The notes beneath the pieces were generated by a model. It saw only the letters and a list, made by a program, of their open reading frames with translations, was not told the DNA's origin and made no database searches. 64,000 nucleotides of DNA, from positions 192,001-256,000 of the IMG/VR virus record IMGVR_UViG_3300045988_179014, one strand, 5' to 3'. Made by a program: the position numbers and the translations under genes. Shown here piece by piece: positions 14,906 through 58,792 of the stretch; within the stretch, counting starts at the first letter, position 1, and each line of letters begins with the position of its first letter. The DNA is from a virus.

Positions 14906-16135
14906 TTATCGTTGTGATTTCAAATTTTCAAACCATGGTAGAACACGCTGTTTGATGTATCTTTCTATGTTTCCATGCCCTGGATAAATTTCATAGTTCC
15001 AGCGCAAATAATACCTTTTCACCAATGAATCCTGTATTGACACATTGATGTGCAACTCATCCAAATTTGTAACATATAAATAATACAACCCACGTATACG
15101 ATACGCAGTCGGTATCGAAGAAGCCCATTCCAATGAAGAAGCAACTTTTGTCTCTAGAAGACCAACAGGGGTGTTTGAATCCCTATCACACACTACATTG
15201 TTCAAATCAATCACTTGCCATGGATGTTCGGGATTTACATATTGCTGGTTTACTTTGACCACACGATTTTTCCCTTGTTGGAATTTTGCATAATCATTCA
15301 GAAGTCGCGGTCCCCAAACTGCTTCTTGATATCTGCGAGCTTTTCGTCGCCAATCTACCTCCCCAGCTTCATCATTGTTGAACCTTTTGGGAATACCCTG
15401 AACTTTGATTTGTTCAATTCTATTGAACAGCTGTTTGATACGTTGATTTTTCGGGTAGGCTGTAAAATCGTGTAACGCGAATAGTCCCACGTCAGATGCA
15501 GTAATTGTGTCACAATAAGGGACGAAATTTGTGTCACCGTCCTCCAGTTGTGTTATTGGAACGGTATCCCCAATAGGACCGAAATTAGCATCAATGTCAT
15601 ATTTTTGCTTGAAATGCGGACTTTCTGTCAACGCTTCCACCAACATGGTCGTGGTTCTTCGATATGATTCATGATTACGAACCAAACTGGCATATGTTTC
15701 CTCATCATATGGACACATAGGTTTTCTGTTCAATGGAGACCGTGCCCATAGTAACTCCCAATTGGCCATAGTGCGTTTACCACGTTCCACGACAAGAGAA
15801 TCAGCGACCTTCCATGATTTGCGCGACTCATCCACTAACTCTTGTAAACGTTCAGCATCAGCGCCATCCATACAATCAATCAAATTGTTCTCAAGGATTC
15901 GCTTCTCAATTTTCTTGGAATGGTTCTGGGTAGACTTATCTTCCTTGTGATGCGATTGAATGGTCTTAAAACGATTAGCCATCATAGTCAAAGATGCTTC
16001 TTGGGCTTCAGCTTTCGTATCATAATGGTTTTCTTCAACACCTTGACCATAACGACATTTTTCTGGGGAGGTTGAACAACGGTTCACTTTACCAGTTTCA
16101 GGGTTAACATGAAATTTCTTTGAAGCCATTACCAT
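14906..16135 (-). CDS. Protein with N-terminal HCCH-like module (FHVNPETGKVNRC..EKCRYG..HYDTKAEAQEA); C-terminal domain unknown
   Basis: Shares an N-terminal ~45 aa motif with at least eight other ORFs in this window. Confidence 0.5.
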   Translation of the reverse strand: MVMASKKFHVNPETGKVNRCSTSPEKCRYGQGVEENHYDTKAEAQEASLTMMANRFKTIQSHHKEDKSTQNHSKKIEKRILENNLIDCMDGADAERLQELVDESRKSWKVADSLVVERGKRTMANWELLWARSPLNRKPMCPYDEETYASLVRNHESYRRTTTMLVEALTESPHFKQKYDIDANFGPIGDTVPITQLEDGDTNFVPYCDTITASDVGLFALHDFTAYPKNQRIKQLFNRIEQIKVQGIPKRFNNDEAGEVDWRRKARRYQEAVWGPRLLNDYAKFQQGKNRVVKVNQQYVNPEHPWQVIDLNNVVCDRDSNTPVGLLETKVASSLEWASSIPTAYRIRGLYYLYVTNLDELHINVSIQDSLVKRYYLRWNYEIYPGHGNIERYIKQRVLPWFENLKSQR

Positions 16136-16294
16136 TCTCCATCCTCAAAACGCATGATGGACACTTTTTCTAAAACCCTATAGAACATGGCATCATTATT
16201 TGTTGAACAATTACAACAAAAAACAATGCACCAAGAAGAATTTTTACATCCTGGTGCATTGTTTAGGTTATAGTCCTTTATTGACCATCAATCT

Positions 16295-17398
16295 TTATGC
16301 AGAATTTTCAATTTGGCGAGTTTCCTGTTCCAAAATATGGCGCAATTGAACCCAATCAGGGCCGAAATTACTGTGCGCCAGTTCTTTGGCATTCAAACCA
16401 ATGTCATTAGCGCCAGTCACGCTGAAAGCCACATGTTCAAATGGACTGAAGTGCTTGTTATCAAACAGCCGTTCCCCAAGACGGATTGTAGCAGTTGATT
16501 TAGATGCACGAGATTTATCGTTATAGGAGATTTGGGCAGACTCGGTGGCAGACAACATGGCCACATTCCTCAAATCCGCAAAACAGGATACATTGGTTGG
16601 TACTTCATCATGGTCAATAAAAGGCAGATGAAGCCAAGAAACCCGTGGAACTGAAACATTCAATGCTTTTTCAACCAATTTGGCCAATGCAACAATAGCA
16701 GGTTGAGCAGTGTTCAAATCCGTGCGCAATTTGAGGAAATTTTCCCAATATGTAGCTGTGATGATAACTTCGTGCATCATAACAGGTTCCAGAATTCGGT
16801 TCACATCCTGTTTATGAATGGACAATGCTAATGGATTTGGATTTTTTGCATTGTAAACTTCTTCATAGTACAAATCTAGTAGTTCAGAATAACGTGAAGC
16901 CAGTGAACCCAACCCAGTGGATTCCTCCCATGGCATCATTCCATCAAGTAGGAAGTCCAGTACTTGTTCCACACACACATCACGCCATACAAGCCACTTT
17001 TTAACTGCCCGTTTTCTTTCCTCAGCAGACAGGAACACTCCACTCATACCTTTCTGATTACGAGTGAAAAGAGGAATGTGAGGTCTTTGCATGACGTCGC
17101 CAATTGTGGTTTTCACCGAACGCGCACGGGATGAAGCCGAGTTACGAGAGAAGGTTCGATGTGTGTTCACTTCTGGAAGAATAGGGCGGGGGAACCGAAC
17201 GATGACGGTAAACACTCGTTGCCCTTCCCCATTCCTGTCAATGTTCGCAATTGTGTCCTCTACCACAGTTGCTTCAAACCCCTCCAACATGGGGTCATGA
17301 TATGTGAAACGCAAATACGGGGATTGACGGTATGGAAGTTGCACCTCCTGAACCAAAATGTCATCAAAATCAGGAACCAAAGGAGAAGCAATAACCAT
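16295..17398 (-). CDS. Hypothetical protein, 367 aa
   Basis: ORF track only. Confidence 0.4.
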   Translation of the reverse strand: MVIASPLVPDFDDILVQEVQLPYRQSPYLRFTYHDPMLEGFEATVVEDTIANIDRNGEGQRVFTVIVRFPRPILPEVNTHRTFSRNSASSRARSVKTTIGDVMQRPHIPLFTRNQKGMSGVFLSAEERKRAVKKWLVWRDVCVEQVLDFLLDGMMPWEESTGLGSLASRYSELLDLYYEEVYNAKNPNPLALSIHKQDVNRILEPVMMHEVIITATYWENFLKLRTDLNTAQPAIVALAKLVEKALNVSVPRVSWLHLPFIDHDEVPTNVSCFADLRNVAMLSATESAQISYNDKSRASKSTATIRLGERLFDNKHFSPFEHVAFSVTGANDIGLNAKELAHSNFGPDWVQLRHILEQETRQIENSA

Positions 17399-17666
17399 AA
17401 TAAACCTTTCATGGTTGAATCAATAGACAACTTCCGCCATTCTACCGAAACAACCATTATGGGAATGCCACTGCATATGTCTTCATATCCAATAATCATG
17501 TCAAAATCTAAGCATGTTTAACCTATCTGACATGAAACCATTATGAAAACGATAGAATTCTTAGGCCAAAATGATAACGAAAGTTAAGCGACTTTATAAA
17601 TAGCAATAACTTTCGGCAGCTAACGAGAACATGCCGAAAGTTATTGCATTACATGACAATACAGGT

Positions 17667-23067: not shown

Positions 23068-24321
23068 TCAGCTGAACATATCAAGGATTGTACCCATGGT
23101 GGAATTCTTGTTAGAAGTATGAGCAAACAATGATTTGTGCCGCATTTTGGCCATGTGAGCTTCTTCCAATTCCCGCTCTTTATCACGTTGCTGTTGGAAA
23201 CGACGTTCTGCTCGTGCTACCACGCCTTCAACTTGCACCATGTAATCTTCCAGCCAAACCAAACGTGCATTGTCTCGTTTCTCTTTTACTTTTTCATAAC
23301 CGGGTTTTTCCAACATGTTCTCATTCAGAAACTCCCGTAATTTGGTCACAGCCTCTTCAGGACTGTGAACTTGATAACTCACGCCTTCAGGATATTCAGC
23401 GTTCAAGAAATCCATACGCCATTCCCCATTGGTGTATCGAACAGCCCACCACTCTTTGGATTTACCCTGAGAATTGTCCAATACACGTAACTCCATTTCT
23501 GGCATTTGATTCAAATAAAATGGATTGTCTTTTATGAATCTTTCCAATGAGTGTGCACGAAAAGTGGTACTGTTCCATTCCTCACTGACACGAACAGTTA
23601 CCGAATCGCTGGCACGAAAACTTCCTTTTCCCTCTTTCCATCCAAACTCTTCAAATACTTGGTAGGGGCCTTGTGCTTCCTCTTCAACCACTACATGTCC
23701 GGCTTTCAACTGACTCAACAGATAGTCAGTTTGTTTCTCCACTTCGGTATCGTAAAGCGATGTTGAGTTGATGATGACAGTTTCACGCAGAAAGTTGCGA
23801 GCTTGTGCCAATGCGTTTTCCCTATCCCCGTTCAAGTCAATCTCAAGGGTTTCTTTCGGAAAAACACCACTGTTATAGGTCATCTCAAGTTCCCAAATGC
23901 CTCCAATTACTCCTCGGTCATAATCCGCACGTGGTCGACGAAAAGCAGAAACTCGCACACGTGGCACTTCACCAACATTTGTTTGCAGCAATGGAATCTG
24001 TGCTCTTTGAATGGCTGGGTCTTCACCATATTGCAGGAAAGCTTCATCCATCATGTTGGCATAATCTCGTGGAGTTTTACCGGAATTCAAATTGCCGTTA
24101 TATTTTATTATTCCGAATGTTTTTGGAGTGTTGGGGTCTTTTAAAACTGCGTCAACTTGCTCCCGCGCAGCTTCTAACTGTGACCGTTCATTACGTAGAG
24201 CAAGAGCAGTTTCGGCGCCCTGAATTGTGTCATAATCCCGAAATGGGCAGGGTTTAAAAGTAGCGGTGCACTCAGCTACCACGTTATCAGCATTAATGTG
24301 GTAACGTTTTGTTTTGGCCAT
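23068..24321 (-). CDS. Protein with N-terminal HCCH-like module (KRYHINADNVVAEC..FKPCPF); remainder unknown
   Basis: Shared N-terminal motif; strong AGGAGG Shine-Dalgarno upstream. Confidence 0.5.
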   Translation of the reverse strand: MAKTKRYHINADNVVAECTATFKPCPFRDYDTIQGAETALALRNERSQLEAAREQVDAVLKDPNTPKTFGIIKYNGNLNSGKTPRDYANMMDEAFLQYGEDPAIQRAQIPLLQTNVGEVPRVRVSAFRRPRADYDRGVIGGIWELEMTYNSGVFPKETLEIDLNGDRENALAQARNFLRETVIINSTSLYDTEVEKQTDYLLSQLKAGHVVVEEEAQGPYQVFEEFGWKEGKGSFRASDSVTVRVSEEWNSTTFRAHSLERFIKDNPFYLNQMPEMELRVLDNSQGKSKEWWAVRYTNGEWRMDFLNAEYPEGVSYQVHSPEEAVTKLREFLNENMLEKPGYEKVKEKRDNARLVWLEDYMVQVEGVVARAERRFQQQRDKERELEEAHMAKMRHKSLFAHTSNKNSTMGTILDMFS

Positions 24322-31965: not shown

Positions 31966-33111
31966 ATGATGTATCACACAACCCCGGAAGGTCGTACACT
32001 TCCTTGCAGAAATCCAGACAAATGCCCTTATGGAGCATATGCCACACAAGAAGCATCCCAGAAAGCGTATGAAGCGTCCATGGCTTCCAAAACCACTATG
32101 GGAATGTCGCGAACCAATAGCAAAGGTAGGACTCAAAAGGAACTCAACGAATGGGCCAAGAACTCTACAAATGTGGATGAGTTGCAACAAGTGGCCGAAC
32201 AAGGAAAAGAACGTGCACTGAGAAACTTGGCAGCAAATGAACATGCCACCAGCGAACAGTTGCTTTTAGGCCGTAATAGAACCAACAATCCAGAAACCAA
32301 GGAAAAGTTTGAACGGGCTGATAATTTCCCAGTTGAACACATGAGTGAGGAATTGTTGCAACATTTATTCCAACACAACTATGGCAACAAGTTGGAACAA
32401 CGTAATGGTTTGAATGATGCTGGTGTTGACCGTATCATGGCTATGGGGGCTCGTGCGCTTCCGATTGCTGCCAACAGATACAATAAAGTTTCAGCTGCCA
32501 AATTGCAAGAACTCACATCAGGTATGTCCAGTACTGACATTGGCTATGTTATGAGATGTAATCCACGTTATGTTCCCAAGAACATTGAGTCAATGAACAC
32601 AAATGAATTAATCGCCATTGGGAGAGAATCCAATGATGCAGAGACTCTTCACCGAATAGCAACAGTTTTAACAAATAAAACTGACCGTGAACTTGAAACG
32701 GCAGCTGAACAAATACTGATGAATCGAAACACATCAGATAAAACATTGAATATGCTGGTGCAACATCCAGGTATTCGTAACGAAAACAATTTTGTCAACA
32801 TTTTCGCTCATCCAAATGCTTCAAATGCCACCAAACAAATAGCTGCCAAGAGGGACCGTCGTGTTGCCAGTATAGTGAAAATAAAAGATTTGGTTGCGGA
32901 TAAACCCGAAACTATCAAACGTATTCAGGATACTACGCACTATGAATCTGATTACAGGAAATGTCGTTACCGCTTTGACCCTGATGTTTTGAAAGAAGCA
33001 GGATGGGATGACTATGATGTGGATACATATGTTCGTTACGAATTAAGAAACTATCTTTGGGGGCCACAATACAATTCAGCCACAGGAGAATATATCGGAT
33101 ATACGGATTAA
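31966..33111 (+). CDS. Protein with N-terminal HCCH-like module (MYHTTPEGRTLPCRNPDKCPYG...QKAYEASM); remainder unknown
   Basis: Shared N-terminal motif. Confidence 0.5.
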   Translation: MMYHTTPEGRTLPCRNPDKCPYGAYATQEASQKAYEASMASKTTMGMSRTNSKGRTQKELNEWAKNSTNVDELQQVAEQGKERALRNLAANEHATSEQLLLGRNRTNNPETKEKFERADNFPVEHMSEELLQHLFQHNYGNKLEQRNGLNDAGVDRIMAMGARALPIAANRYNKVSAAKLQELTSGMSSTDIGYVMRCNPRYVPKNIESMNTNELIAIGRESNDAETLHRIATVLTNKTDRELETAAEQILMNRNTSDKTLNMLVQHPGIRNENNFVNIFAHPNASNATKQIAAKRDRRVASIVKIKDLVADKPETIKRIQDTTHYESDYRKCRYRFDPDVLKEAGWDDYDVDTYVRYELRNYLWGPQYNSATGEYIGYTD

Positions 33112-36345: not shown

Positions 36346-36346
36346 A

Positions 36347-39352: not shown

Positions 39353-39439
39353 GGCGTTTCCTTTCAGAATGCAAACAGGTCATCATGCAACACAATTGTT
39401 GTGACCATACTGTGTGCGAATATCACTCACATCTCACAA

Positions 39440-40642
39440 TCAATCCACGTTTTTCAGTTTCAACAATGCTGTCAAAGTCATTTCCGCATCTGCTAAAGCT
39501 CTATGCGCTCCTGTATAGGACTGTCCTGATGCTTCCACCAATGATTTGTTGGTGTTGTCAGGTGTTTCGGGCAGGAAGAATGTACTGACCATGCGAGTGT
39601 CCAATACTTCCAGCCCATTCGCTTGTAATGCATTGAAACCGAAAAGATTGTGCTGCAACTGTCCAATTTCAAATTTGGCATTATGCGCCACCATGACAGA
39701 ATCACTCAACATGGACAACACCTTGGTTTGCTTTTCTGGGTCATTCACGAAAACTTCTTTGTCTTTAATCTCATCCCATGAAATATGATGAACATGCTCA
39801 GCACCAGTACCATGAACTTTGGCGAAGTCTTGAGGAACTCCACTCATGAATGACATGGTTTCAACACGACCATCTGGATAACGTTTGACAATACCTACTT
39901 CAATGATGTTTGAATATGGACCTTTGTCAACATATCCACTCTCTTGAGAAGCGGCAACCTCCAAATCAATTGATACCAAAGGTTTATCTGTTCTCAAAGA
40001 CATATTGGCCCACATATGACGGTATGCCTCAGTGCGGGTCATTCCAGTTGCCATCAAATCATCAACTTGTTTCTTCACGTCTTCAGTTGACATGCCTGAA
40101 TACGAGGAAATCACTTGATTCGCGTCGGCCTCGTTTTCAGATGTGATATCAGGGTGGAAATTGTAAGGACCGTTCTTCTTCTTTTGTTGCCGTTTCCAAT
40201 CCTCAAATTTTGCTTGATTCAATGCTTTCTGGTCATCTCTTCGTTGTTGCAATTGGGCTCGTTCTTCAGAAGACATGTATCTTTCAGCTTCACGTTCTTT
40301 AGCTGTAGCCAAGAAATTCAATTGTTTGGCTTTTTGCACCGTCTGGAACCAACGAACACTGGCCAGAGCTTCTGGATTACCTTCAGCGGTTTTCAGTTCG
40401 TTGGCCAGTTTCCACATATTCCTTTTTGCAGCCCGAGATTTCAGAAACAACTCCTCTATTCGTTCAGCATTTGATGTTGAGGACTTGGACATTGTGTTCA
40501 CTACTTGATTGGACATTCTACGTTCATATGCGTCACGTGCTTCAGCTATAGAGTTGTAGTGGAACTCATCAGAATATGGGCATTGTCGTTTAGCAGAGCA
40601 ACGATTTACAACACCATTTTGAGGGTTTAAATGAAATAACAT
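39440..40642 (-). CDS. HCCH-like N-terminal module fused to a DnaQ/epsilon-like DEDDh 3'-5' exonuclease
   Basis: N-terminus LFHLNPQNGVVNRCSAKRQCPYSDEFHY..EARDAYE. C-terminus VSIDLEVAAS (Exo I), HNAKFEIGQL (Exo II), HRALADAEM (Exo III). Confidence 0.6.
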   Translation of the reverse strand: MLFHLNPQNGVVNRCSAKRQCPYSDEFHYNSIAEARDAYERRMSNQVVNTMSKSSTSNAERIEELFLKSRAAKRNMWKLANELKTAEGNPEALASVRWFQTVQKAKQLNFLATAKEREAERYMSSEERAQLQQRRDDQKALNQAKFEDWKRQQKKKNGPYNFHPDITSENEADANQVISSYSGMSTEDVKKQVDDLMATGMTRTEAYRHMWANMSLRTDKPLVSIDLEVAASQESGYVDKGPYSNIIEVGIVKRYPDGRVETMSFMSGVPQDFAKVHGTGAEHVHHISWDEIKDKEVFVNDPEKQTKVLSMLSDSVMVAHNAKFEIGQLQHNLFGFNALQANGLEVLDTRMVSTFFLPETPDNTNKSLVEASGQSYTGAHRALADAEMTLTALLKLKNVD

Positions 40643-42095: not shown

Positions 42096-42226
42096 ATATT
42101 CTCGCTTTCTGTAGACTCCTCATCTGTTCAAATACTAAAACACGATTTTTGAGAGATTGGGTTCTTGTCTCTTGTTGCTGTGTATAGTATTGTCAATTAT
42201 GAGACTTGTACACCATTCATCAATGT

Positions 42227-42406: not shown

Positions 42407-42465
42407 TGAATACTCCTTTAGTTATTTATTGGCTTTTCAACTTTACCATGTTGTTTAATCTTGTG

Positions 42466-43707: not shown

Positions 43708-43713
43708 GTAACA

Positions 43714-44940: not shown

Positions 44941-44942
44941 GT

Positions 44943-46064
44943 TTACTCCTTGTTCTCAAACGGGTCAGTTTTCGGAGAGGCATTCGTTCCATCAAGAATC
45001 TCTCCTTTATCATTGATGGCAACCAATTGAACTACGCTTATTGGCCCGCTACCGGATGAAGCCATTCGTAAATCATTGTGCACCCCAACCACCAAATAAC
45101 GAGATTGTCTTGGTAACAGAACTTCTTTCTCATCCAAGAAGTCGCTGATAGATGAAATGTTAACACCTTCAGGAGTCATGATTTCAAAAACAAGACCACC
45201 ATTAGAACCAACATATGTTTTGGCAACTTCTAAATCAACACTGGATGATTGGTACCCATCGAATTTAAGCTCTTTACCCAAAGCAATGTTTTCGCTCATC
45301 CACTTTTCTAGGCCTCCAGCTTGTCTGATGAATTTGCTTTCAGCATCTACACAGCGATAAACAATTCGATTAATTTTAGGACCTTTTTCAAGTGCGCTGT
45401 CCAAAACTTTACATGTGTTACGAACTGTTTCTTTTGTACGCATTTCAAGAGGAATGTTAAAACTCATGATATAGTGCACATCTGAATAATCATTAACGAA
45501 TTCAGTTTTGGCATTACCTTCCACAACCTCGACCAAACAAGTCTCATTACCATGAAGAGCCCCATTGAACCATTCGTATTCATTGGTTGTAAAAAACCGA
45601 GTCGCTACTTGTTCTGGTAGCGACAACTTAGTCACTTCCTGCTTAGACAACTCAATTACTCGATTTGCCGGAATTGTCCTTCGTGAAAAACATTGCCTTT
45701 TGAACGGCATCTTGCCAAATCCAAATTCCATGTAACTGTTTTCATCAATGTTTTTGTGATTGATAACACCATGAAAAGTTTTCTCAGCAAAATACCCCAA
45801 CTGCACTAATGCCCCATTGTATTTATCTAAAGTTAAGTTTAGTTTCTGGTTGTTTTCAGTTGATACAGACTTGAACAAGATGTCCCCAGATTCTCCTTGA
45901 AATTCACCATCGAATGTACGAGAAGCGACAATTCCTGAAGTATTTGACTCTTGTGAAGCTTTTTCTAGTTTTCTGGCATGATAACGTTCTCGTCTCCGGG
46001 CGTTCCGGGCTGCAATAGCTACTGGGTCACTATATGATGGGCAACGTCGATTTTTTCTACACAT
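44943..46064 (-). CDS. Mono-ADP-ribosyltransferase, paralog 1 (more diverged)
   Basis: RIVYRC, GYQSSS, DEKEVLLPRQSRY; N-terminus MCRKNRRCPSYSDPVAIAARNARRR. Confidence 0.6.
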   Translation of the reverse strand: MCRKNRRCPSYSDPVAIAARNARRRERYHARKLEKASQESNTSGIVASRTFDGEFQGESGDILFKSVSTENNQKLNLTLDKYNGALVQLGYFAEKTFHGVINHKNIDENSYMEFGFGKMPFKRQCFSRRTIPANRVIELSKQEVTKLSLPEQVATRFFTTNEYEWFNGALHGNETCLVEVVEGNAKTEFVNDYSDVHYIMSFNIPLEMRTKETVRNTCKVLDSALEKGPKINRIVYRCVDAESKFIRQAGGLEKWMSENIALGKELKFDGYQSSSVDLEVAKTYVGSNGGLVFEIMTPEGVNISSISDFLDEKEVLLPRQSRYLVVGVHNDLRMASSGSGPISVVQLVAINDKGEILDGTNASPKTDPFENKE

Positions 46065-46178
46065 ATGTTATATTCCTTGACTATCTGACTCGTCGTCCCC
46101 TATATATCGTTTTATCAGATAACCATAATCATGTCCACTAAAAACAATCAACTTGTCAACAAAACTTCATCAAACGAG

Positions 46179-46811
46179 TCAAATAATACGTTTTGTACTG
46201 TCATTCTTGTCAACAGTGTGCACATCCCCGCCAATGAATCCAATAGTGATGTGAAAATCCTTGGGCGGCAACCCTGCATTTCGTCGCCAAGCATTCATGA
46301 CAGGCGATTTGACCAATATGTACCAAGCTTCTTTTTCCCCATCTCTTACACTGCCAACCCCATCCAATGTGAAAGACATGGAAGTATCAACAGGCAATGA
46401 AACACCAGATTTACGAAGCTGTCTGGTTTCTTTGGGAGTTAACAAAGTCACGTGAAAATAATAACCACCATCGCGTTGTATTTTTGCTGTCTCCATGGCC
46501 TCTGCTGTTTCAGCTCCTACATGTTGCCGCCATGCTTGCAAATGCTCTTGTAAAAGAGTCTCAGAAACCTTGACACCAACATATGAGTTATATTTCAAAC
46601 CTTGTGCCACGTTTTTGAACTCAGTTTGTGGCAATCCAACCCGAACCGACTGTTTCCGTAAACGTTTCAACGGCTCTTGGCTATTGTGGTAGGCTTTTTC
46701 GGCATCTGACAAACTGTTGAAATGTTCACCCTTCTTGCGACAATTCCCTGGTTTGGCTATACATGGTTTAGGCCCGTCATCCGTCATATGGTACATGGTC
46801 CTATTCCTCAC
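46179..46811 (-). CDS. HCCH-like N-terminal module fused to a 2H phosphoesterase (LigT/CPDase-like)
   Basis: N-terminus MYHMTDDGPKPCIAKPGNC...HF. Two H-x-T-x motifs: FHVTL and FHITIG. Confidence 0.6.
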   Translation of the reverse strand: MRNRTMYHMTDDGPKPCIAKPGNCRKKGEHFNSLSDAEKAYHNSQEPLKRLRKQSVRVGLPQTEFKNVAQGLKYNSYVGVKVSETLLQEHLQAWRQHVGAETAEAMETAKIQRDGGYYFHVTLLTPKETRQLRKSGVSLPVDTSMSFTLDGVGSVRDGEKEAWYILVKSPVMNAWRRNAGLPPKDFHITIGFIGGDVHTVDKNDSTKRII

Positions 46812-47966
46812 TCAAATTTTTGTTCTACACACGGGTCCGATGTTTCCGTGTTTAAGAGGCTGTCCACAACGTATACAACAACCTGAATTCCAAACAGTGG
46901 TTACCGCAGGTTCAGGATATGAAGACACTGTGGAAGGGTCCTGTGGCTCAGTGTGTTCAACTGTTGAAACCAATAATCCTTCCCGTTGGAACATTTGTAT
47001 CACACGAGGACGGTCATCAATAGCACCAACTACAGCAAAACCTTCAGCTCGCAGTTTTTTCAACTGTTCTAGCTTGTATTCTGTATCAGTACGATAATCA
47101 TTCAACCGTTTCAGCAACAATTTACTAACCGGGGCATCAACACGTTCCAGAAAATTAATGGTCTCTTGTGCATAGTTATCCGTTCTTCCAGACAATGCAA
47201 CAATGTTTATACCTTCAGCTCGCATTTCACGAATCAGATTCAATACTTGTGTGTTAACTGGAGCATATTCAGCCGCTTTGTGGAACTTGTGAAAATTCTT
47301 CTTCTGCCCAGGAACACCAAAAGCCTCATTCATATCTTTTTGGTTGTGAGCCAATGTCCCATCCAAATCCACCAACATAATAGCATTCCCTATCATTGGA
47401 TAACGTTGAGACATTTCCTCATCAAATTTCGCTATCCGGTCCATGCCATCAGTGTGAAACGGAACCACTGACACTTTTCCAGATGTTTTGGAGACAATGT
47501 ATTCTTTCAAATGCCCCTTGTCATCATAAGCTTTCTGGGCCATAGCATCAATAACATGTTCTGGAACGCAACGCCCACCTTGTTGACCACGAACAATATT
47601 TCGCTGTTTACACACATCAACAGGAACATCAAAATACAACTGTTCAATCTCAGCATTGTAGATTGAGGCCAAATTGTGCAAATGTTCCACCACGTTACGA
47701 TTCAAATTGGTATCATCTGAGATAACATGTTTTCCAGCAGCCAATCCTTGACGAATCAACTCATCCTGCACTGCTGTTACCTGTTCTTCACATTTCTTGC
47801 GAGGCGATTGGTTATGATACTCGCTACCGAACAACGCAGTACGAATGTCATCACGATTCACACGAACAGTGTTTTCAGGGTCAGACGCAACCATTTGTTC
47901 TGCCTGAGTGCTTTTACCCGACCCTGGAAGCCCGTGCGTCATGGTGAAACGCGGATTACCGCTCAT
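46812..47966 (-). CDS. Polynucleotide 5'-kinase/3'-phosphatase (T4 Pnk-like) with C-terminal zinc-ribbon tail
   Basis: GLPGSGKST, VNRDDIR, ISDDTNLN (kinase); MLVDLDGTLA, ALSGR, AIDDRPRVIQMFQREG (HAD phosphatase). Collinear with T4 Pnk motifs. C-terminal CCIRCGQP...CRTK. Confidence 0.85.
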   Translation of the reverse strand: MSGNPRFTMTHGLPGSGKSTQAEQMVASDPENTVRVNRDDIRTALFGSEYHNQSPRKKCEEQVTAVQDELIRQGLAAGKHVISDDTNLNRNVVEHLHNLASIYNAEIEQLYFDVPVDVCKQRNIVRGQQGGRCVPEHVIDAMAQKAYDDKGHLKEYIVSKTSGKVSVVPFHTDGMDRIAKFDEEMSQRYPMIGNAIMLVDLDGTLAHNQKDMNEAFGVPGQKKNFHKFHKAAEYAPVNTQVLNLIREMRAEGINIVALSGRTDNYAQETINFLERVDAPVSKLLLKRLNDYRTDTEYKLEQLKKLRAEGFAVVGAIDDRPRVIQMFQREGLLVSTVEHTEPQDPSTVSSYPEPAVTTVWNSGCCIRCGQPLKHGNIGPVCRTKI

Positions 47967-48029: not shown

Positions 48030-48563
48030 TCAAGATTTAACAATCATTGGACGCCCATCAATACCTGTCCTAATACCTTGATGCTCATAATATTTGGCCC
48101 GTAACATTTCTGAAACAATCCGAGTGTTACGTACAGTAGCTTTTACCAGTTCTTTACTCTTGGTTCGCAGGAAAATCTTGCTTCGTTTCAACATTTTTCG
48201 ACGATATGCTTTCAAAGCCGCTATACGGTCACGTCTACGTTGCTGACGCACAATATTGCGAACATTGGGTGTGTAACGTTTTATGGCACGATAATTCATA
48301 ACAAAACGCACAGCAGCATTGTCCTCACCCAATTTCTCCATTTTTCTGTAATAACGTTGGATAGGTGATTGACCAATGTTACGTGCTACAACTTTTCCAA
48401 CCAGTTCGCCATATTCTTGGGTCATTTTGGCTTCATAAACCGCTTGGGCTTCTTGTTGATTGTCAAAATGCTTTCCACCTTGGGCAGCATATGGACATGT
48501 TCCTGCTACCACTTTGCACAGACGTGGTCCATCATTGGTTATATGATAAAGCCTCATACTCAT
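48030..48563 (-). CDS. HCCH-like N-terminal module fused to a basic Arg/Lys-rich C-terminus (possible nucleic-acid binding)
   Basis: N-terminus LYHITNDGPRLCKVVAGTCPYAAQGGKHF..EAQAVYE; C-terminus highly basic. Confidence 0.5.
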   Translation of the reverse strand: MSMRLYHITNDGPRLCKVVAGTCPYAAQGGKHFDNQQEAQAVYEAKMTQEYGELVGKVVARNIGQSPIQRYYRKMEKLGEDNAAVRFVMNYRAIKRYTPNVRNIVRQQRRRDRIAALKAYRRKMLKRSKIFLRTKSKELVKATVRNTRIVSEMLRAKYYEHQGIRTGIDGRPMIVKS

Positions 48564-48614: not shown

Positions 48615-48950
48615 TCAAATATGCAGTTTCTCCAACACTGAAACCCTCCATTGAAGAAAACTGAACACAGCTTTGTCCAAGTTCCCATCAGTTAAAGCAT
48701 ATACACTGTCTTGACCCATTTCCTCGTCTGTAACAGAAATGCTACCATCTGGCATTAAAAAGAACTCATTACCAAACAGTTCAAAAGTAATGCCATCTGG
48801 CTCCCATGTATTATTCATCTGTTTGGAGACAAGAGTTAATTCACTCAATAAATACAGTCTGAAAACACCATCAGAAGTCGTATTTTCAATAATGTCGCCT
48901 AAGTCTTGTAGCGCTGATACCAAATGTTCAAAAATCTTTGTTTTCATCAT
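48615..48950 (-). CDS. Hypothetical protein, 111 aa
   Basis: ORF track. Confidence 0.35.
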   Translation of the reverse strand: MMKTKIFEHLVSALQDLGDIIENTTSDGVFRLYLLSELTLVSKQMNNTWEPDGITFELFGNEFFLMPDGSISVTDEEMGQDSVYALTDGNLDKAVFSFLQWRVSVLEKLHI

Positions 48951-50320: not shown

Positions 50321-51325
50321 TCATCGAGGTTTTACTATCAATGCCTCATCACTGAGATGTATGCTTGTTTCATATGACAATGGCTGATTGGAACTTATGA
50401 TTACTTCATCCCAGAAACGGTCACTTCCAGTACATCCACCATATGGTTCTCCCACATTGACAATAGTGACATGTGGGTAATCATCTTTTACCATTTGAAC
50501 TAATTTTGCATCAATGGTATTATCATAGGGCGCCCACACAATAGCCAAGTGTGTAATTGAGTCCCCGTATTTTCTCAATGCATCCTGAGCATCCATCTGT
50601 TCCAACCCTTGAGACAACTGCCAGGAATTATCATCCGTTCCAATGGTTTTAACCCCTTCATCTCGTAAGGCCTTCACCAGATATCCTTTACCTGCCATGG
50701 GGTCCAACAAAGTGCCATTTCCCACCACTCTGGCCAAAGATTTCGCAAACTTTCGTGTAACTTTGGCATAGTATCCTGTCTCACACAACAATGAATGAGC
50801 CATCGTACTTACTGCATAATTTTCCTGCATTTGTTTCGGCAGTTCATTTGGGATTTCACCGTTGATGATTTTTACGCAATATTCTTCAGATTCAACATCT
50901 AGAGACTCCCCCAATGATTCCAATGTTGATTTGATGTCATTCAAATACTCCAGTTTGTCTGAAGCTGGCGTTATGATGACTGGTTCAATCCAATCATTAT
51001 TTTTCTGGCGGGACATGGTTTTACAAGAAGTTCCTCCACATTGAGATTTCATACGTTTCTCAAATGCGACTTGTGCCGCTTGGAGTGTTTGGTAATGAGA
51101 ATCATCCGTATTTCGTGTTATGGGACAATTACCAGGTTGCGCATAACACCTTTTGGGACCAATGGCTGTAAGGTGATAAATGGCAGTGGTCATGGTTTCT
51201 CCTATTACTGTTAAGCATGCAGCAATGTCACACATAATACGAATTACAAACAACATATAGTTTCTAAGGCGATGCATAGTTGTATCCAATACTGGTACAA
51301 CATGCTGAGGTTTCACAACATCCAT
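50321..51325 (-). CDS. HCCH-like module fused to a Rossmann-fold SAM-dependent methyltransferase (possible DNA/RNA MTase)
   Basis: YHLTAIGPKRCYAQPGNCP...HY motif. The real start is probably the internal Met of MTTAIYH. Motif I LLDPMAGKG, acidic TIGTDD, WAPY (degenerate (D/N)PPY?). Confidence 0.45.
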   Translation of the reverse strand: MDVVKPQHVVPVLDTTMHRLRNYMLFVIRIMCDIAACLTVIGETMTTAIYHLTAIGPKRCYAQPGNCPITRNTDDSHYQTLQAAQVAFEKRMKSQCGGTSCKTMSRQKNNDWIEPVIITPASDKLEYLNDIKSTLESLGESLDVESEEYCVKIINGEIPNELPKQMQENYAVSTMAHSLLCETGYYAKVTRKFAKSLARVVGNGTLLDPMAGKGYLVKALRDEGVKTIGTDDNSWQLSQGLEQMDAQDALRKYGDSITHLAIVWAPYDNTIDAKLVQMVKDDYPHVTIVNVGEPYGGCTGSDRFWDEVIISSNQPLSYETSIHLSDEALIVKPR

Positions 51326-52872: not shown

Positions 52873-54063
52873 TTGGAGGCCCATCCTATGTATCACATCA
52901 ACGATAAAGACGAATCGAAACGCTGTTATGCCAAAAGCATGGAAAGGTGTCGATTCTACCGTGCTGATGACCCTCGACACTATGAAACCGCAGAAGAAGC
53001 CCAACAAGCAGCAGAGGAAAGGATAAGAAAGAAAGCGTTGAAAGAAGGGCATGGAACCACCAATTCCTTGAGTAAACGCACCATGAATGAACATGATGAC
53101 AAAGACATTAATTTTGCTGGAATGGAACGTGATGAACGTACTCGCCAAATGCAGGAAACTCTTGACCGTGAGGTTGAACAACTAATCAAAGATGGACGAT
53201 TGGCAAAATTCTTGGATGCGATGTCCAAAAATGGGGTACAGAGATGGAGCGCCAACAACATTCTGTTAGCAGCTCTGCAATTGCGCTCATATCGGAAACG
53301 AAACGGATTACCAGTTACCAACAATCTATTTGACACCATAAATGAACTTGATGCTTGTGGAGCCAAACAATGGAATGAACGAGGACGTAAAGTCATCTCT
53401 GGAAAAGGTTCAGCTCTTTACATTCTGGCACCATTACAACGCAAATATCCTGTTAAAGACGCTCAAGGTAATCAATTAGTGGATGAAAACGGCCAACCAG
53501 TCATGCAACGTTACACATATGGTTGGCGTTCTGTAGCTGTTTTTGATGTCAGTCAAACAGAAGGTGAACCAGTTCCTCAGAATCCACTACAAATGAAACC
53601 CGTCACTACAAAAATCAAATCGCAATATGTGGATGACATGAAGAATGTGGTTCAATCATATGGATACAAAGTCGTTCATGCGGAAACAGCGTCAGACCCA
53701 GAAAGATTGAAAGGAACTTTGGGCGCGACCAATCCCACCACAAAAGAAGTGACAATAGACCCTCGTTTATCAGAAGCGCAACAAGCGGCTGTTCTAGCAC
53801 ACGAATTAGGCCATATTGCAATGGGGCATTTGGATGAGGATATGCAGGAATATGTAAAACATAGAGGAATTAAGGAAACTGAAGCTGAGGCGCTTGGTTA
53901 CATGTTGCTGCAAAGAGCTGGACTTGGACCAAAGGAAGGCGCCGCATTCTCAGCTCCTTATGTTGCAGGTTGGTCTAAAGGTGATATGAGTATGGTGCGT
54001 ACAGCTTTGAATAAAGTCACTAGTCGTTTCGGTAAACTGATGGATATATTGAAATGGGATTGA
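52873..54063 (+). CDS. HCCH-like module fused to an ArdC-like antirestriction protein (ssDNA-binding N-domain + HExxH metallopeptidase)
   Basis: N-terminus MYHINDKDESKRCYAKSMERCRFY..HYETAEEAQ; C-terminal AVLAHELGHIAMGH zinc-metallopeptidase motif, as in ArdC. Confidence 0.55.
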   Translation: MEAHPMYHINDKDESKRCYAKSMERCRFYRADDPRHYETAEEAQQAAEERIRKKALKEGHGTTNSLSKRTMNEHDDKDINFAGMERDERTRQMQETLDREVEQLIKDGRLAKFLDAMSKNGVQRWSANNILLAALQLRSYRKRNGLPVTNNLFDTINELDACGAKQWNERGRKVISGKGSALYILAPLQRKYPVKDAQGNQLVDENGQPVMQRYTYGWRSVAVFDVSQTEGEPVPQNPLQMKPVTTKIKSQYVDDMKNVVQSYGYKVVHAETASDPERLKGTLGATNPTTKEVTIDPRLSEAQQAAVLAHELGHIAMGHLDEDMQEYVKHRGIKETEAEALGYMLLQRAGLGPKEGAAFSAPYVAGWSKGDMSMVRTALNKVTSRFGKLMDILKWD

Positions 54064-55119: not shown

Positions 55120-57084
55120 CTACCGCCTAACCATCGTATTGGATACATCATGGATTTCTTCATGGTCAACTGGGGTAGGGACGAACACCCCATTACGATG
55201 CAAAGAACTCTGAAAATTATACAACGCTTTCATCATCATTACCGTATCAGCTTCAGCAGCGTGTGCATCCACATATGGTACTCCATTGTCTTCTGAAAAC
55301 GACTGCAATGAGTTGTCAATAGATGTAACCATAAGATGAGATGCAATTTGTTTAGTATCCAAAATCAACAAACTACCATCATCCAACGCTTCAGCAAACC
55401 CTGGAAGATTCACTGCCAGAAACTCTTTTTCAAATGTGGCATTATGAGCTACAAGCACTGCACCATGAAGAGCGTCCCAAATAGCTGTCACATTGGCTTC
55501 ATCCTCAAATTCCGGCTTGTTTGCCACCATATCAGGAGTAATACGATGCAAAGACTCCAGTCCCACACCTACTCCATCAATCACGTCAGCACTTATCCCG
55601 TGAAGAGTAGACAGCAATGTTTCCACATTACCATCTGGAGACAAACGGACAATGGCGGTTTCCAAAATACGCCCTTTAGCAGGAGACGCTGCACTCGTTT
55701 CCAAATCAATACCAACTATAGGCTGGGTGCGGATTGACGGATTGTGCGCAGCGTACACAGATGTCAAAACTGATTGAATCTGTGTGGGGGAATAACTAGT
55801 GCCGTCTTTCTTGACTTTGGTGAAAGCATCGCGTACAACTTGATAACAATGCTCCACCGTATCCCCAGAGTATGCTGCTACTTTGTACGCCCAGTCTTTC
55901 ATATTGACACTCTTTGGGAACCCTTTATGAATCTTCTTTGCAAAACGATTCACCCCAGCCGCCAATTCCTCTTTGATGGTCTCTACTTCATGCCAGAATT
56001 CGGCTGCTGCGGTTTTCATGTGTTCCCACTCTTCAACAGCTCGTGGGTCATCCATGTTGAAGTGGTACTCGCGATAGTCATAATCATCCAAAACAGCTAC
56101 CAAAGTAACCGTTTTCAAACCAGCCAATCCCGCATACCAAATGGCTTGCTGTCGATACCCAACTGGCATTCCTGCAAAGCCATCTTCAGTGTCTCCCCAT
56201 TTAGAGCTATTGTGAACGCCTGTTTTGATTTCTACGATACCAACGGGAGTATTGGTATCATCAAGCTCTAAACCGTCAAAATTTGCATGACAGTGGGAAA
56301 ACTCGCCAGTCCCGGCCCATGAGGTTTTACAGAAAGCGATGCGTTTCCCAGAGTTCTTCATGTACATATGTCGGATAGCTTCTTCCCAAGCATTTCCCCG
56401 CCCTACAGCTGTTCGTTTGTCAAGACGGGAGTCATCATCAACAGGAAGAATGGACAATCCAACTTTCTGAAGAAGCAATGAATGATAATCTCGTGCTCCA
56501 TATTCTGGGTTGGATTTCAGGATTTTGTGGATATCTGAGCCACCAATGCCATTGTTACGCGCATGATGCCACTCAGCGCTACCAGAGACATAATCCCCTA
56601 CTGCTACCAAAGACCCAATGGTATCTTTGGTGTATGCCAGGAATGTCCCCTCCTCACGTTGTTGCTGTTCACGAATACGCGAAAAAGCTTCAGCCGCCAT
56701 AGCATTGAACGCTTTGTACTCATCAATATTTGTGTTCAGCAGCGATAACCGCTCAAACACTGAACGGTAGGGTAGCGTTGCTTCACGAATAGCAACATAT
56801 GACTTTCTTTTAGTTCCATCCTCATATGGAAGATACCCTTTTGCTCGTTTGATGTTAATGAGCAGATGTCGAAGTACTTTGTAAAAATTGCCCCTAACAT
56901 CAAGGGCGGCCTGGAATTCTGGAGTGTTACTACGTTGGAACACCCACCTCATGAGTACATCTGGGTCCTGTTTTTCCAGTAATTGGTCCAGTTCTGAAGC
57001 CGTACCCTCAGAATTGAACTCTGCTATTGACACTGGCCAATCCAAAACCTCAGAAAGGCTGTACTCAATGTCGTTGTCTGTCAT
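55120..57084 (-). CDS. Fusion protein: YqaJ/lambda-Exo-like PD-(D/E)xK exonuclease domain + C-terminal DnaQ-like DEDDh 3'-5' exonuclease
   Basis: GSAEWHHARNNGIGGSDIHKIL (YqaJ signature); IVGIDLETSA, HNATFEKEFL, HAAEADTVM (epsilon-like Exo I/II/III). Confidence 0.55.
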   Translation of the reverse strand: MTDNDIEYSLSEVLDWPVSIAEFNSEGTASELDQLLEKQDPDVLMRWVFQRSNTPEFQAALDVRGNFYKVLRHLLINIKRAKGYLPYEDGTKRKSYVAIREATLPYRSVFERLSLLNTNIDEYKAFNAMAAEAFSRIREQQQREEGTFLAYTKDTIGSLVAVGDYVSGSAEWHHARNNGIGGSDIHKILKSNPEYGARDYHSLLLQKVGLSILPVDDDSRLDKRTAVGRGNAWEEAIRHMYMKNSGKRIAFCKTSWAGTGEFSHCHANFDGLELDDTNTPVGIVEIKTGVHNSSKWGDTEDGFAGMPVGYRQQAIWYAGLAGLKTVTLVAVLDDYDYREYHFNMDDPRAVEEWEHMKTAAAEFWHEVETIKEELAAGVNRFAKKIHKGFPKSVNMKDWAYKVAAYSGDTVEHCYQVVRDAFTKVKKDGTSYSPTQIQSVLTSVYAAHNPSIRTQPIVGIDLETSAASPAKGRILETAIVRLSPDGNVETLLSTLHGISADVIDGVGVGLESLHRITPDMVANKPEFEDEANVTAIWDALHGAVLVAHNATFEKEFLAVNLPGFAEALDDGSLLILDTKQIASHLMVTSIDNSLQSFSEDNGVPYVDAHAAEADTVMMMKALYNFQSSLHRNGVFVPTPVDHEEIHDVSNTMVRR

Positions 57085-57227
57085 GGAACCTCCAAATCTA
57101 CCTCATACCATTACACCATTCAAACACTGTGGTGTCAAATTGACTGATTCAACTTTGAATCATATGGAACCATGATTTGGTATTCTGAAATCAACATGAA
57201 TACAATACAAGGAATAATGGCAATACG

Positions 57228-57710
57228 ATGATTGAAGCGGTTATTGGACTTGGAATAGTCACTTTGGTGATGATACTAGTATTGTTGCTTTCTCTCTGGT
57301 CAGAACAGCCAGCAGAAGAAACAGGAGTAACTCCAACACAAACTCTATCAACCTCAAACAGTAAGTCATTATCTGACCAACTAAGTGTTTCTGTTTCATC
57401 AGTTCAGGAAGAGAATGAACTGAAAATTATCTCATTAAGCCTTGAAAATTTAGGTACTACCAGTTTGCATGTTGGTGTCACCAGAGTTGTTGGTATTATT
57501 GGCAGTCATCAGAAACAATTTGGTGAAAATGGCGTTCCTGACCGGTTAACAATTGTTTTGGCTCCTTCAAGCATTGAGGTGTTGAATGTGGGATTGGATG
57601 ATTACCCACAAACCACAGTTGCCATGTTGATAGAATTTGTGAACTTGAATACAATAAAACATGGGAAACTGTCATCGCGTGATTATTTGACCAAAACATT
57701 CACATTTTGA
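57228..57710 (+). CDS. Secreted/membrane-anchored protein, 160 aa
   Basis: N-terminal hydrophobic segment VIGLGIVTLVMILVLLLSLW. Confidence 0.4.
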   Translation: MIEAVIGLGIVTLVMILVLLLSLWSEQPAEETGVTPTQTLSTSNSKSLSDQLSVSVSSVQEENELKIISLSLENLGTTSLHVGVTRVVGIIGSHQKQFGENGVPDRLTIVLAPSSIEVLNVGLDDYPQTTVAMLIEFVNLNTIKHGKLSSRDYLTKTFTF

Positions 57711-57814
57711 TGCCATTACGAGGTGAACGATTTCCACATCTATACTAATATGCAGTAGTTTTCAACATACTAAAAACTTATTGGAGGCAAAACAACTACA
57801 ATGTTGGAAACACT

Positions 57815-58792
57815 TCAATTTGAGTATTTGTTGATAATGTTTTGTAACCTGCTGGTAGTGTTGCACAATTGTTTCCATATCACAGCTTTACCACGTTCTG
57901 AAATTGGCAGATTCAGCTTCATCATGGAATGTTTGAAAACCTCTACTACTGGAAGATACTTGATAGCTTGTTTTTTCGTTTTGTGTCTTCGTTCAGGAAT
58001 GTCATTGTTGTAAAGCCCTGTTGCGTTGTCAATGAAATCGCTTACTTTTACTAAAAATACTCCAGGATGATTTTCAATTGCTTTGGCCACGTGGTCGTGA
58101 TAACGCTTGTTCTTGACTTCTGTTGACATGCGTGATTTGTCCTGGTCTGCAATGTAATCATTTGTCACTGCATCCACCAAATGAAGAACACGAGGACCAT
58201 AAGCGTCATTGATGTGTTGACGTAATGTGTTTCGTGCTGTCAATTCATCACAATCAGTTACCCCGTGAAATTTGTCCATGAAAACTCTTGCCCCATCTTC
58301 AATTGTGTCATGAAGAACAGCAGCAACAATTACATCTTGGTCCTGTGCACCCAAACGTATCAAACGTACCGCATTACGTAGAGGATGTTCAATATAAGGC
58401 GTGGTCGCAAAGTTACCTCGATTGCCTCTGATTTGATGTGCATGCAGGATAGTAGCCAAATCTACTGACGAATCGACAATTTCAGCATTCAAGCCCAACA
58501 ATGCTGCTTCATGCCGTAATGTTTGAGCCAGTTGTGCCGCATCCAGTTTTTTCAAAGGTGTTTCACGTAACACTTGCGCTGAACGAGCACATAATTCTTC
58601 TGCACTTACACTAATTGAGGAATGGGGATGGTTTCGGGGCTTTTTTAATGTTGGAATCATTGAGTGGGCCATCATGGATTCATGGTTTTGTTTTGCAGCA
58701 TCAGCAGAATCACCATGAACCAGAGGACAATGACCTTCGCGAGCATCACAGCGAACAGATTTTCCCAATGTCTCGCTGAAATGGTACCTCAT
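57815..58792 (-). CDS. HCCH-like module fused to a RelA/SpoT-type HD domain ((p)ppGpp hydrolase-like small alarmone hydrolase)
   Basis: ILHAHQIRGNRGNFATTPYIEHPLRNAVRLI...VAAVLHDTIEDG...VLHLVDAVTND...LVKVSDFIDN follows SpoT hydrolase motifs (HPL..A, LHDxxEDT, GVTK, KLADRLHN). Confidence 0.65.
   Translation of the reverse strand: MRYHFSETLGKSVRCDAREGHCPLVHGDSADAAKQNHESMMAHSMIPTLKKPRNHPHSSISVSAEELCARSAQVLRETPLKKLDAAQLAQTLRHEAALLGLNAEIVDSSVDLATILHAHQIRGNRGNFATTPYIEHPLRNAVRLIRLGAQDQDVIVAAVLHDTIEDGARVFMDKFHGVTDCDELTARNTLRQHINDAYGPRVLHLVDAVTNDYIADQDKSRMSTEVKNKRYHDHVAKAIENHPGVFLVKVSDFIDNATGLYNNDIPERRHKTKKQAIKYLPVVEVFKHSMMKLNLPISERGKAVIWKQLCNTTSRLQNIINKYSN

Follow-up and report, generated by a model that had tools for sequence, protein, structure and literature searches.

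A small His-Cys-Cys-His module, apparently undescribed, heads functionally unrelated proteins in a giant element from human oral metagenomes

We analysed a 64,000-nucleotide stretch of DNA (IMG/VR record IMGVR_UViG_3300045988_179014, positions 192,001 to 256,000, hereafter the window) and found that nine of its open-reading frames (ORFs) are headed by one ~50-residue His-Cys-Cys-His module, which leads into an acidic helix and is followed by a different payload in each. The sharing of this module is real and lies far beyond chance. Our favoured reading, to which we give a probability of roughly 40%, is that polymorphic nucleic-acid and nicotinamide adenine dinucleotide (NAD) enzymes of a conjugative plasmid-like element share the module as a header or docking domain, comparable by analogy to the proposed ArdC-N header. 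An earlier reading made from the DNA letters (the sequence-only reading) had offered a common docking module as the second of its two suggestions.

That reading had reported nine ORFs carrying the module within their first ~10 residues, and its coordinates and strands are borne out: all nine translations open with the related segment, and after refinement of the start codons the first His stands at residue 3–9 in every copy. The probable refined starts are ATG 46796, ATG 52888 and ATG 51193, public gene calls on near-identical contigs give the same proteins (205, 391 and 290 residues), and Shine-Dalgarno-like GGAGG/GAGGA motifs lie upstream of the starts. The full regular expression first proposed was too strict and matched none of the nine, whereas a core of [YF]H-x(8-11)-C-x(5-7)-C is present in all of them when tested as a regular expression; the H-C-C-H spacing proposed earlier therefore holds for its first three positions in 9/9 copies, but the second His is found in seven only. 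In the nine-copy alignment, where identity to the first sequence is 21–33%, only His, Cys and Cys are invariant; the first His is preceded by an aromatic residue, and the second Cys is followed by a helix that is acidic and rich in Ala. A loose regular-expression scan of all six frames of the 64 kb recovered exactly these nine, each at the start of a long ORF, and a hidden Markov model (HMM) built mostly from external sequences recovered exactly the same nine from the six-frame ORF set (E = 1.5e-9 to 3e-17). Per-domain HMM scores are 36–61 bits (E = 2e-12 to 5e-20 against the nine-protein set), whilst reversed and 20-fold shuffled ORFs of the window gave no HMM match at E ≤ 10, so that the conserved His, Cys and aromatic positions are not a compositional artefact. 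BLASTP among the nine proteins confines their similarity to the first ~50–60 residues, with one pair reaching ~116.

Behind the module, all nine payloads in the window are distinct, as had been claimed. Gene 1 (14906..16135, minus strand, 409 residues) carries the module at residues 1–60 (DNA 15956-16135, 61 bits; first His at residue 9) and a YqaJ/RecE-like nuclease C-terminus (Pfam YqaJ, E = 2e-4; PHROG 434 RecE-like exonuclease, E = 2e-9); its payload had been listed as one of three unknown folds, of which the other two remain without a family. These are gene 2 (23068..24321, minus strand, 417 residues), with a degenerate module at residues 1–52 (DNA 24166-24321, 36.5 bits) that retains H, C and C, and gene 3 (31966..33111, 381 residues; one of just two module genes on the plus strand), with its module at residues 1–46 (DNA 31966-32103, 42.9 bits); neither payload matches a family in Pfam, NCBIfam or PHROG. 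Gene 4 (39440..40642, minus strand, 400 residues) joins the module (residues 1–52, DNA 40487-40642, 61 bits) through a long linker to a DEDDh (RNase_T/DnaQ-like) exonuclease (RNase_T at residues 223–392, E = 1.3e-12). Gene 5 (46179..46796, minus strand, 205 residues) combines the module (residues 1–42, DNA 46671-46796, 48.9 bits) with a 2H-SAK phosphoesterase (E = 1.1e-19); the GTG start at 46811 chosen earlier would add five codons to the 205 residues of the public gene calls. In gene 6 (48030..48563, minus strand, 177 residues) the module (residues 1–54, DNA 48402-48563, 61 bits) is followed by a conserved SPxQRxYR segment and a very basic tail that matches no family in Pfam, NCBIfam or PHROG, and the exact protein occurs on 11 human oral metagenome contigs, nine of them 0.2–1 Mb long.

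Gene 7 (50321..51193, minus strand, 290 residues from ATG 51193) places the module (residues 1–55, DNA 51029-51193, 60 bits) before a possible Rossmann methyltransferase. For this call the evidence is a weak TIGR01177 match (E = 0.034) and an LLDPMAGKG motif, and the payload also matches PHROG 19090, of unknown function (E = 9e-10). Upstream of the MTTAIYH start, the long form of this ORF (50321-51325, minus strand) is extended by 44 codons for a hydrophobic segment rich in Cys, and gene callers are split between 290 and 334 residues; the adjoining segment itself varies between near-identical contigs, with genes of 242 and 290 residues in one (L002) and of 95 and 334 residues in another (L003). 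Gene 8 (52888..54063, plus strand, 391 residues from ATG 52888; 52873 in the longer ORF) carries the module at residues 1–52 (DNA 52888-53043, 49.5 bits), an ArdC-like region and a zincin (M78-type, HExxH) peptidase, matching Peptidase_M78 (E = 1e-8) and PHROG 7245 anti-restriction (E = 4.5e-6), with a weak ArdC-N match (E = 0.048) at residues 112–224 of the 396-residue ORF. Gene 9 (57815..58792, minus strand, 325 residues) has a divergent module (residues 1–50, DNA 58643-58792, 42 bits) and a SpoT/RelA-type HD hydrolase (HD_4, E = 1.4e-7; TIGR00691 spoT_relA, E = 4e-12). The earlier assignments of the 2H, DnaQ, SpoT-type HD and ArdC-like metallopeptidase domains and of the basic tail therefore stand, the ArdC-N part of the metallopeptidase being weak.

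The sequence-only reading recognised no named domain in the module, and our searches agree. Residues 1–60 of the nine full proteins have no match in Pfam-A (2025), NCBIfam 20 or PHROGs v4; the nine isolated modules match no family at E ≤ 10 apart from DUF6472, DUF5633 and YoaP lines at E 0.03–0.2 in one copy, and in 148 and a further 125 family members the module is likewise uncovered by Pfam-A, NCBIfam and PHROGs models. A profile search of Protein Data Bank (PDB) sequences returned nothing significant, the resemblance of the H[YF]-x-[ST]-x-x-E-A helix start to an RNA recognition motif being insignificant (E = 0.25). The ligand spacing in the wider family, H-x(8-10)-C-x(5-7)-C-x(5-10)-H, is neither that of a classical C2H2 (beta-beta-alpha) finger (C-x2-4-C-x12-H-x3-5-H) nor that of a CCHC knuckle (C-x2-C-x4-H-x4-C) or PBZ finger (C-x5-C-x6-H-x5-H), and a faint PBZ likeness is limited to the C-x6-C-P-[FY]-G stretch. 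Homology to ArdC-N (PF08401) is rejected, as its match never falls over the module and is found only at residues 112–224 of the 52873 protein, and so is an ATCUN-type N-terminal metal site, as the His is not fixed at position 3. Literature searches on the motif and related descriptions found no account of the module, and the polyvalent-protein survey of Iyer et al. 2017 does not mention such a domain (PMC5512222). The domain appears to be undescribed, in the sense that it is unnamed in the libraries tested.

A structure prediction supports a small fold. AlphaFold2 with a 137-sequence alignment gave a confident hairpin, loop and helix model (mean predicted local distance difference test score, pLDDT, 82), in which strands 5–9 and 12–16 hold His7 and Cys16, a loop and short helix surround Cys23, a bridge contains His32-Phe33 and a helix spans residues 36–51. 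Foldseek found no significant match to the model in the PDB (best E = 2.5), so the predicted fold would be unlike any solved structure searched, and in BFVD it found only unannotated family members from 'Siphoviridae sp. ctHip2'. The earlier suggestion of a tiny zinc-binding knuckle survives in part: a small metal-binding fold is plausible from the model, but the spacing is not that of CCHC knuckles. Ligand conservation and topology suggest that H-C-C-H most likely holds one metal ion, probably Zn. Charge is unevenly distributed, the hairpin half having a net charge of ~+2 with K/R flanking the first Cys and the helix half ~−2.8, and the module as a whole is approximately neutral. In an unrelated two-module protein the same fold pattern was predicted for both modules from a 4-sequence alignment; they are joined by a long helix without confident packing (predicted template modelling score, pTM, 0.38), and self-association or dimerisation of the module is therefore unsupported. 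Four small proteins (P0006, P0007, P0009 and P0011; 146–169 residues) have a module at each end, a long predicted helix between and no enzymatic payload, and such proteins could be adaptors or bridges.

Beyond the window, the profile of its nine modules matched 4,904 of 1.84 billion representative proteins at E ≤ 1e-3 (187 at E ≤ 1e-10), almost all of them aligning at residue 1. Amongst the top 148 matches, 143 (~97%) are N-terminal, with the first His at residue 3–10, and four are C-terminal; 17 have two or three copies and seven are stand-alone proteins of 61–100 residues. Module proteins are mostly 60–480 residues long (median 255) with one recognisable payload. All members of the 137-sequence alignment retain H, C and C, and all but two have the second His (135/137); the middle interval is mostly six residues and the second His is followed by Tyr or Phe. 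The sequence-only reading had proposed a probably undescribed set of families in this element; undescribed it is in the libraries tested, but it is not peculiar to the element. Its sources are almost wholly metagenomic (Logan, ENA, JGI): tblastn of the consensus module found nothing in 50,697 phage records, and in 72,556 plasmid records a single line, a chance match at E = 0.7. A word-indexed protein search, poorly suited to so short a module, returned 1, 1 and 7 matches. Locus scans were run on subfamily alignments A4 and A7, the full module alignments being too diverse, and gave 26 loci in IMG/VR (contigs up to 325 kb), eight loci in 185,579 species genomes (three anaerobic-digester metagenome-assembled genomes, MAGs) and 55 loci in JGI/ENA metagenome contigs (up to 727 kb). 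Module-bearing contigs range from 0.1 to 0.73 Mb with a locus GC of 27–62%.

Module genes are clustered: a stretch of 20 kb may hold as many as 10, one Clostridiales MAG has no fewer than 12, and of the 285 ORFs in the sampled neighbourhoods 44 carry the module. These neighbourhoods share the repertoire of the window (ribonucleotide reductase (RNR), LigA, GyrB, NAPRTase, NAD synthase, RNA ligase, PNKP, NUDIX, 2H-SAK and TnpB), and no ribosomal or virion families are among their listed matches. On five JGI contigs of 674–728 kb (Ga0308157_10000021/25/26/29 and Ga0308170_10000007; loci L049, L056, L062, L070 and L088) module genes occur at several distant positions, as they do on a 437 kb contig (Ga0206103_100008; L052/L075/L078/L097). 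These 0.44–0.73 Mb contigs have a GC of 33–61% and window-like neighbourhoods with RNR, LigA, GyrB, NAPRTase, PNKP and 2H-SAK, and may be very large extrachromosomal elements.

Payload diversity is equally marked outside the window. With the module removed, 138 payloads from other elements fell into 87 BLAST clusters, 60 of them singletons, and distinct payloads within single arrays numbered 10/10, 8/9 and 7/8. Roughly 85% of payloads have no Pfam match; the recognisable kinds are HAD phosphatases, AAA_33/Zeta-type kinases and PNKP, T4-type and other RNA ligases, NAD-dependent DNA ligase (LigA), PolyA_pol/CCA-adding-type and other nucleotidyltransferases, HD, 2H-SAK, NUDIX and RNase_T enzymes, Rv2179c-like and YqaJ nucleases, GmrSD_C/HNH, ResIII helicase, ART-PolyVal, GNAT, M78 peptidase and helix-turn-helix (HTH) domains. 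With an unchanging N-terminal domain, C-termini that vary and several paralogues in each element, the module proteins have the architecture of polymorphic effectors. The proteins do not hold two to fifteen effector domains per polypeptide, as polyvalent proteins do, but the repertoires overlap (ART-PolyVal, ArdC-like and zincin).

The element itself is, from its gene content, a conjugative plasmid-like one, and we class it so because of a conjugation cluster at 1431..9391 on the minus strand. This comprises a NikA-like protein (1431-2291, profile match), a GmrSD_C/HNH-type nuclease (2332-3150) between the NikA-like and VirB4-like genes, a VirB4-like ATPase (3162-4559; weak CagE/TraC and PHROG 24614 matches), TcpC (5184-6923, TcpC match) and a VirD4/TraG-like coupling protein (6977-9391, TraG-D_C/TrwB match), all on the minus strand, and it continues to the left of the window with a Phage_lysozyme2-type hydrolase and a 1227-residue protein. 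The cluster is of Gram-positive type, and a TadE-like protein also belongs to the conjugation genes. A GmrSD_C/HNH protein bearing the module is also present in another element. Exact-protein matches place the window on 337–345 kb contigs (ENA ERZ989790 k127_92592 and ERZ27262748 k119_28504; hence ~340 kb for the element) from human oral metagenomes, e.g. run ERR589357 of PRJEB6997; window GC is ~41% (39–45%), and related contig pieces have 41–42%. Across the ~74 kb of this element that we examined for phage genes (the 64-kb window and ~10 kb of left flank) there was no match to capsid, portal, terminase, tail or prohead protease, and ten further unassigned ORFs of the window matched no phage structural PHROG; the sequence-only reading had taken the element for a phage, which the conjugation cluster and this absence speak against. 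Megablast of 20 kb of the window found no match in phage and plasmid collections, and neither PNKP nor the VirD4-like protein as a single query found related loci in viral or genome collections.

We favour a header or docking domain on the following grounds. The N-terminal preference, the dozens of copies per element, the different enzyme behind almost each of them and the restriction to giant elements, at least one of them conjugative, together argue for a shared address domain, and the confinement of the module to giant metagenomic elements, with its absence from phage and plasmid records, fits a partner specific to those elements. The payload repertoire (ART-PolyVal, ArdC-like zincin, PNKP-type kinases, RNA ligases, 2H, HD, nucleotidyltransferases, exonucleases, helicase, HNH and LigA) matches that of polyvalent and leading-region counter-defence proteins, which we count for a header. 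Precedent exists for parts of this: ArdC-N was proposed by Iyer et al. 2017 as an N-terminal header coupling effectors to transferred single-stranded DNA (PMC5512222), F-type type IV secretion systems (T4SSs) move numerous plasmid proteins (PMC8406263), and anti-defence genes abound in leading regions (PMC11541004). In our reading the module is an autonomous ~50-residue mini-domain: a basic beta-hairpin bears the first His and the first Cys, the second Cys sits in a loop, and the second His and the acidic helix follow. It would give one shared binding partner to polymorphic enzymes of nucleic-acid end-processing and repair, NAD/ADP-ribose metabolism and anti-restriction that giant conjugative plasmid-like elements encode. 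In the version that we favour, that partner would be part of the element's own DNA-transfer or establishment machinery and could be the single strand in transfer, the coupling protein or a hub encoded by the element, so that the enzymes would be concentrated on the element's DNA or would travel with it into a new cell. We infer both the existence and the identity of a common partner, as well as any transfer into recipient cells. The narrower proposal, that the module is a recognition domain loading dozens of enzymes onto the transfer apparatus or transferred strand of giant Gram-positive conjugative elements, we consider unlikely as it stands.

Several observations weigh against a header. Known T4SS substrate signals are C-terminal or internal, charged and largely unstructured, whereas the module is N-terminal and predicted to be folded; to our knowledge a folded N-terminal metal domain is unprecedented as a T4SS signal. 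The tandem, C-terminal and stand-alone forms (17/148, 4/148 and 7/148) are more easily reconciled with a generic binding unit than with a strict leader. Enzymes of housekeeping type (LigA, CCA-adding-type) carry the module without an obvious reason for export, and the copies at 23068 and 31966 lack the second His and with it the fourth ligand. Most of the conserved residues look structural (turn Gly/Pro, the S/T-x-x-E helix cap, helix Ala/Tyr) and point to no obvious binding surface, and clustering the ORFs of 19 neighbourhoods of 10–20 kb each found no non-module family common across elements.

The chief alternative is a nucleic-acid-binding zinc knuckle, in which the basic hairpin would bind RNA or DNA and raise substrate affinity with no common partner and no role in transfer; we regard it as possible, though doubtful. 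In its favour are the substrates of the recognisable payloads, nearly all of which work on nucleic acids or nucleotides (2H, PNKP-type kinases, RNA and DNA ligases, a CCA-adding-type nucleotidyltransferase, DEDDh, YqaJ, HNH, helicase, HD), the ~+2 charge of the N-terminal half with K/R around the first Cys, and the tandem repeats and two-module proteins, which are typical of nucleic-acid-binding zinc fingers. Small N-terminal zinc domains are moreover common on nucleic-acid enzymes, the CHC2 domain of the primase at 11617-13449 in the window being one. Yet the whole module is about neutral owing to its acidic helix half; the payloads also include ADP-ribosyltransferases, GNAT, NUDIX, a zincin peptidase and Zeta-type kinases, some have DNA-binding domains of their own (ArdC-N, HTH, the OB/HhH/BRCT set of LigA), and our searches found no similarity in fold or sequence to known nucleic-acid-binding fingers.

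A regulatory or stability cap is improbable. Here the module would be a redox- or zinc-sensitive switch, or a protease or chaperone tag, through which a whole set of enzymes is activated or degraded together, e.g. under oral oxidative stress. Cys/His metal sites are common redox switches, the module lies at the extreme N-terminus, where degrons act, and a tag shared by many enzymes would permit their joint control; an enrichment in stress-response genes has also been reported for giant oral elements (PMC12340149). However, no linked protease or adaptor gene was seen in the sampled neighbourhoods, and the family occurs in many habitats, anaerobic-digester MAGs among them, and at many GC contents.

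Very unlikely, in our judgement, is the leading idea of the sequence-only reading, a packaging leader. As a virion-targeting propeptide of huge phages the module would send enzymes into the capsid and be cut by a prohead protease after A-[YF]-E of the helix. Related contigs are indeed viral entries in IMG/VR, and UniProt lists six members of the family under 'Siphoviridae sp. ctHip2'; at its end the family consensus reads A-[YF]-E (Ala 118/137, Tyr/Phe 105/137, Glu 108/137), which resembles the S/A/G-x-E sites of phiKZ-type prohead proteases, and both the N-terminal position and the payloads recall injected early proteins. Nevertheless, the reading is unsupported: a conjugation cluster lies in the window and left flank, and the ~74 kb yielded no phage structural gene. 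In the window A-x-E (A-[YFA]-E) occurs in just four of nine copies and inside a predicted helix, known short capsid-targeting sequences are unlike a folded metal domain that also comes C-terminally, in tandem and on its own, and tblastn of the consensus found no match in 50,697 sequenced phage genomes. Chance or low-complexity similarity, or a functionless recent duplication of a 5' gene segment, is refuted despite the shortness of the module and the low pairwise identity, as the nine-module profile retrieves thousands of independent clusters, reversed and shuffled controls are empty, H, C and C are invariant over 137 diverse sequences, and 21–33% identity rules out recent duplication.

The remainder of the window is rich in DNA-metabolism genes: replication and nucleotide functions (DnaG primase, GyrB, a ThyX-like protein and a deoxynucleoside monophosphate kinase), together with NAD and RNA-repair genes that are concentrated in a dense NAD/ADP-ribose and RNA-repair block at 34703-47966, with module genes interspersed. 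This block contains a NUDIX hydrolase (34703-35482), NAPRTase (37212-38507), an ADP-ribosylglycohydrolase (41052-42095), three tandem ADP-ribosyltransferase paralogues (42466-46064) and a PNKP kinase-phosphatase (46812-47966). Four DEDDh/RNase_T-type exonuclease paralogues lie within the 64 kb (13871-14470, 39440-40642, 55120-57084 and 60750-61397); the third is fused to a YqaJ nuclease, and only one of the four carries the module. A family of small ORFs (111–117 residues) directly adjoins a module gene in three elements, at 48615-48950 (minus strand) by the 48030 gene in the window and at 5676-6026 and 484-837 in loci L030 and L041, and may be a linked partner or an immunity-like gene. The window also encodes an amber suppressor tRNA (34577-34649, minus strand, anticodon CUA; called tRNA-Pyl by ARAGORN, and tRNA at 54 bits by Rfam), and its genes of at least 100 residues end in TGA (33), TAA (21) or TAG (5). 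At one locus (L001 1378-2181; ENA ERZ28619873 scaffold_14015, GC 41%) a 42-residue module ORF ends in TAG and is followed by 225 in-frame codons that are nucleotidyltransferase-like; amber read-through, e.g. by a suppressor tRNA like that of the window, would yield a module-enzyme fusion, the sole such case among the fetched loci.

The domain family that the module defines appears to be unnamed; it comprises ~4,900 sequence clusters or more, and its predicted fold has no match among the solved structures searched. That polymorphic effectors of mobile elements share one constant header is a known principle; the domain itself appears new. It provides a practical search handle for poorly charted giant (0.1–0.73 Mb) extrachromosomal elements, of which the ~340-kb one recurs in human oral metagenomes, and flags, by association, a large catalogue of candidate RNA-repair, NAD/ADP-ribose and anti-restriction enzymes. 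If the module is a header, it would offer a direct experimental route to whether and how Gram-positive conjugative elements send proteins along with DNA. If it is in addition a transfer tag, every module-headed gene would be a co-transferred establishment or counter-defence effector, and the module, being folded, N-terminal and metal-dependent, would be the first substrate tag of its kind for a conjugative T4SS and a ready-made marker for thousands of uncharacterised effectors, most with payloads that have no Pfam match.

Compared with known systems, the element resembles the Inocles, giant plasmid-like elements of oral Streptococcus of 245–395 kb (Kiguchi et al. 2025, PMC12340149), in its source, size, VirB4/VirD4, gyrase, exonuclease and DNA-metabolism genes, and in that both were earlier missed by databases. 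We reject it as an Inocle on GC content, which is 39–45% in the window against 32% (alpha to gamma) or 24% (delta) in Inocles, and the module is undescribed in that work (PMC12340149); nothing similar to the InoC marker (PF13814 domain) turned up among the window proteins scanned, no search having been aimed at InoC. The module itself resembles small zinc modules (CHC2 of DnaG, CCHC knuckles, C2H2 fingers, PBZ) in having 30–50 residues, Cys/His ligands and fusion to nucleic-acid enzymes, but its ligand order and spacing, H-x(8-10)-C-x6-C-x(5-10)-H, fit none of them and no HMM or structural match was found. With T4/phiKZ capsid-targeting sequences and prohead-protease propeptides it shares the N-terminal position, its occurrence on unrelated proteins and the family A-[YF]-E at its end. 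Such phage leaders are short or unstructured and occur in phages with head and protease genes, whereas the module is a predicted folded Cys/His domain in an element where neither was found in the ~74 kb. The trafficking domains of polymorphic toxins (LXG with the type VII secretion system, T7SS; MIX/FIX/PAAR with the type VI system, T6SS) likewise have a constant N-terminus, hypervariable enzymatic C-termini and many paralogues, often in arrays. LXG and MIX/FIX/PAAR are larger, helical or beta-rich, have no metal site and are linked to T7SS/T6SS and immunity genes; in the present case no secretion apparatus other than a conjugative T4SS was seen, and the payloads are mostly repair and counter-defence enzymes, not toxins. 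The ArdC-N header (PMC5512222) differs in sequence and fold, being ~120 residues of helix and nested hairpins without a metal site; its match in the 52873 protein lies downstream of the module, and most module proteins have one payload. Yet it offers the closest functional analogy, not a homology: both show a strong N-terminal preference ahead of diverse effectors in conjugative elements, including zincin peptidases, ADP-ribosyltransferases and nucleotidyltransferases, and the ArdC-like zincin protein of the window itself bears the module.

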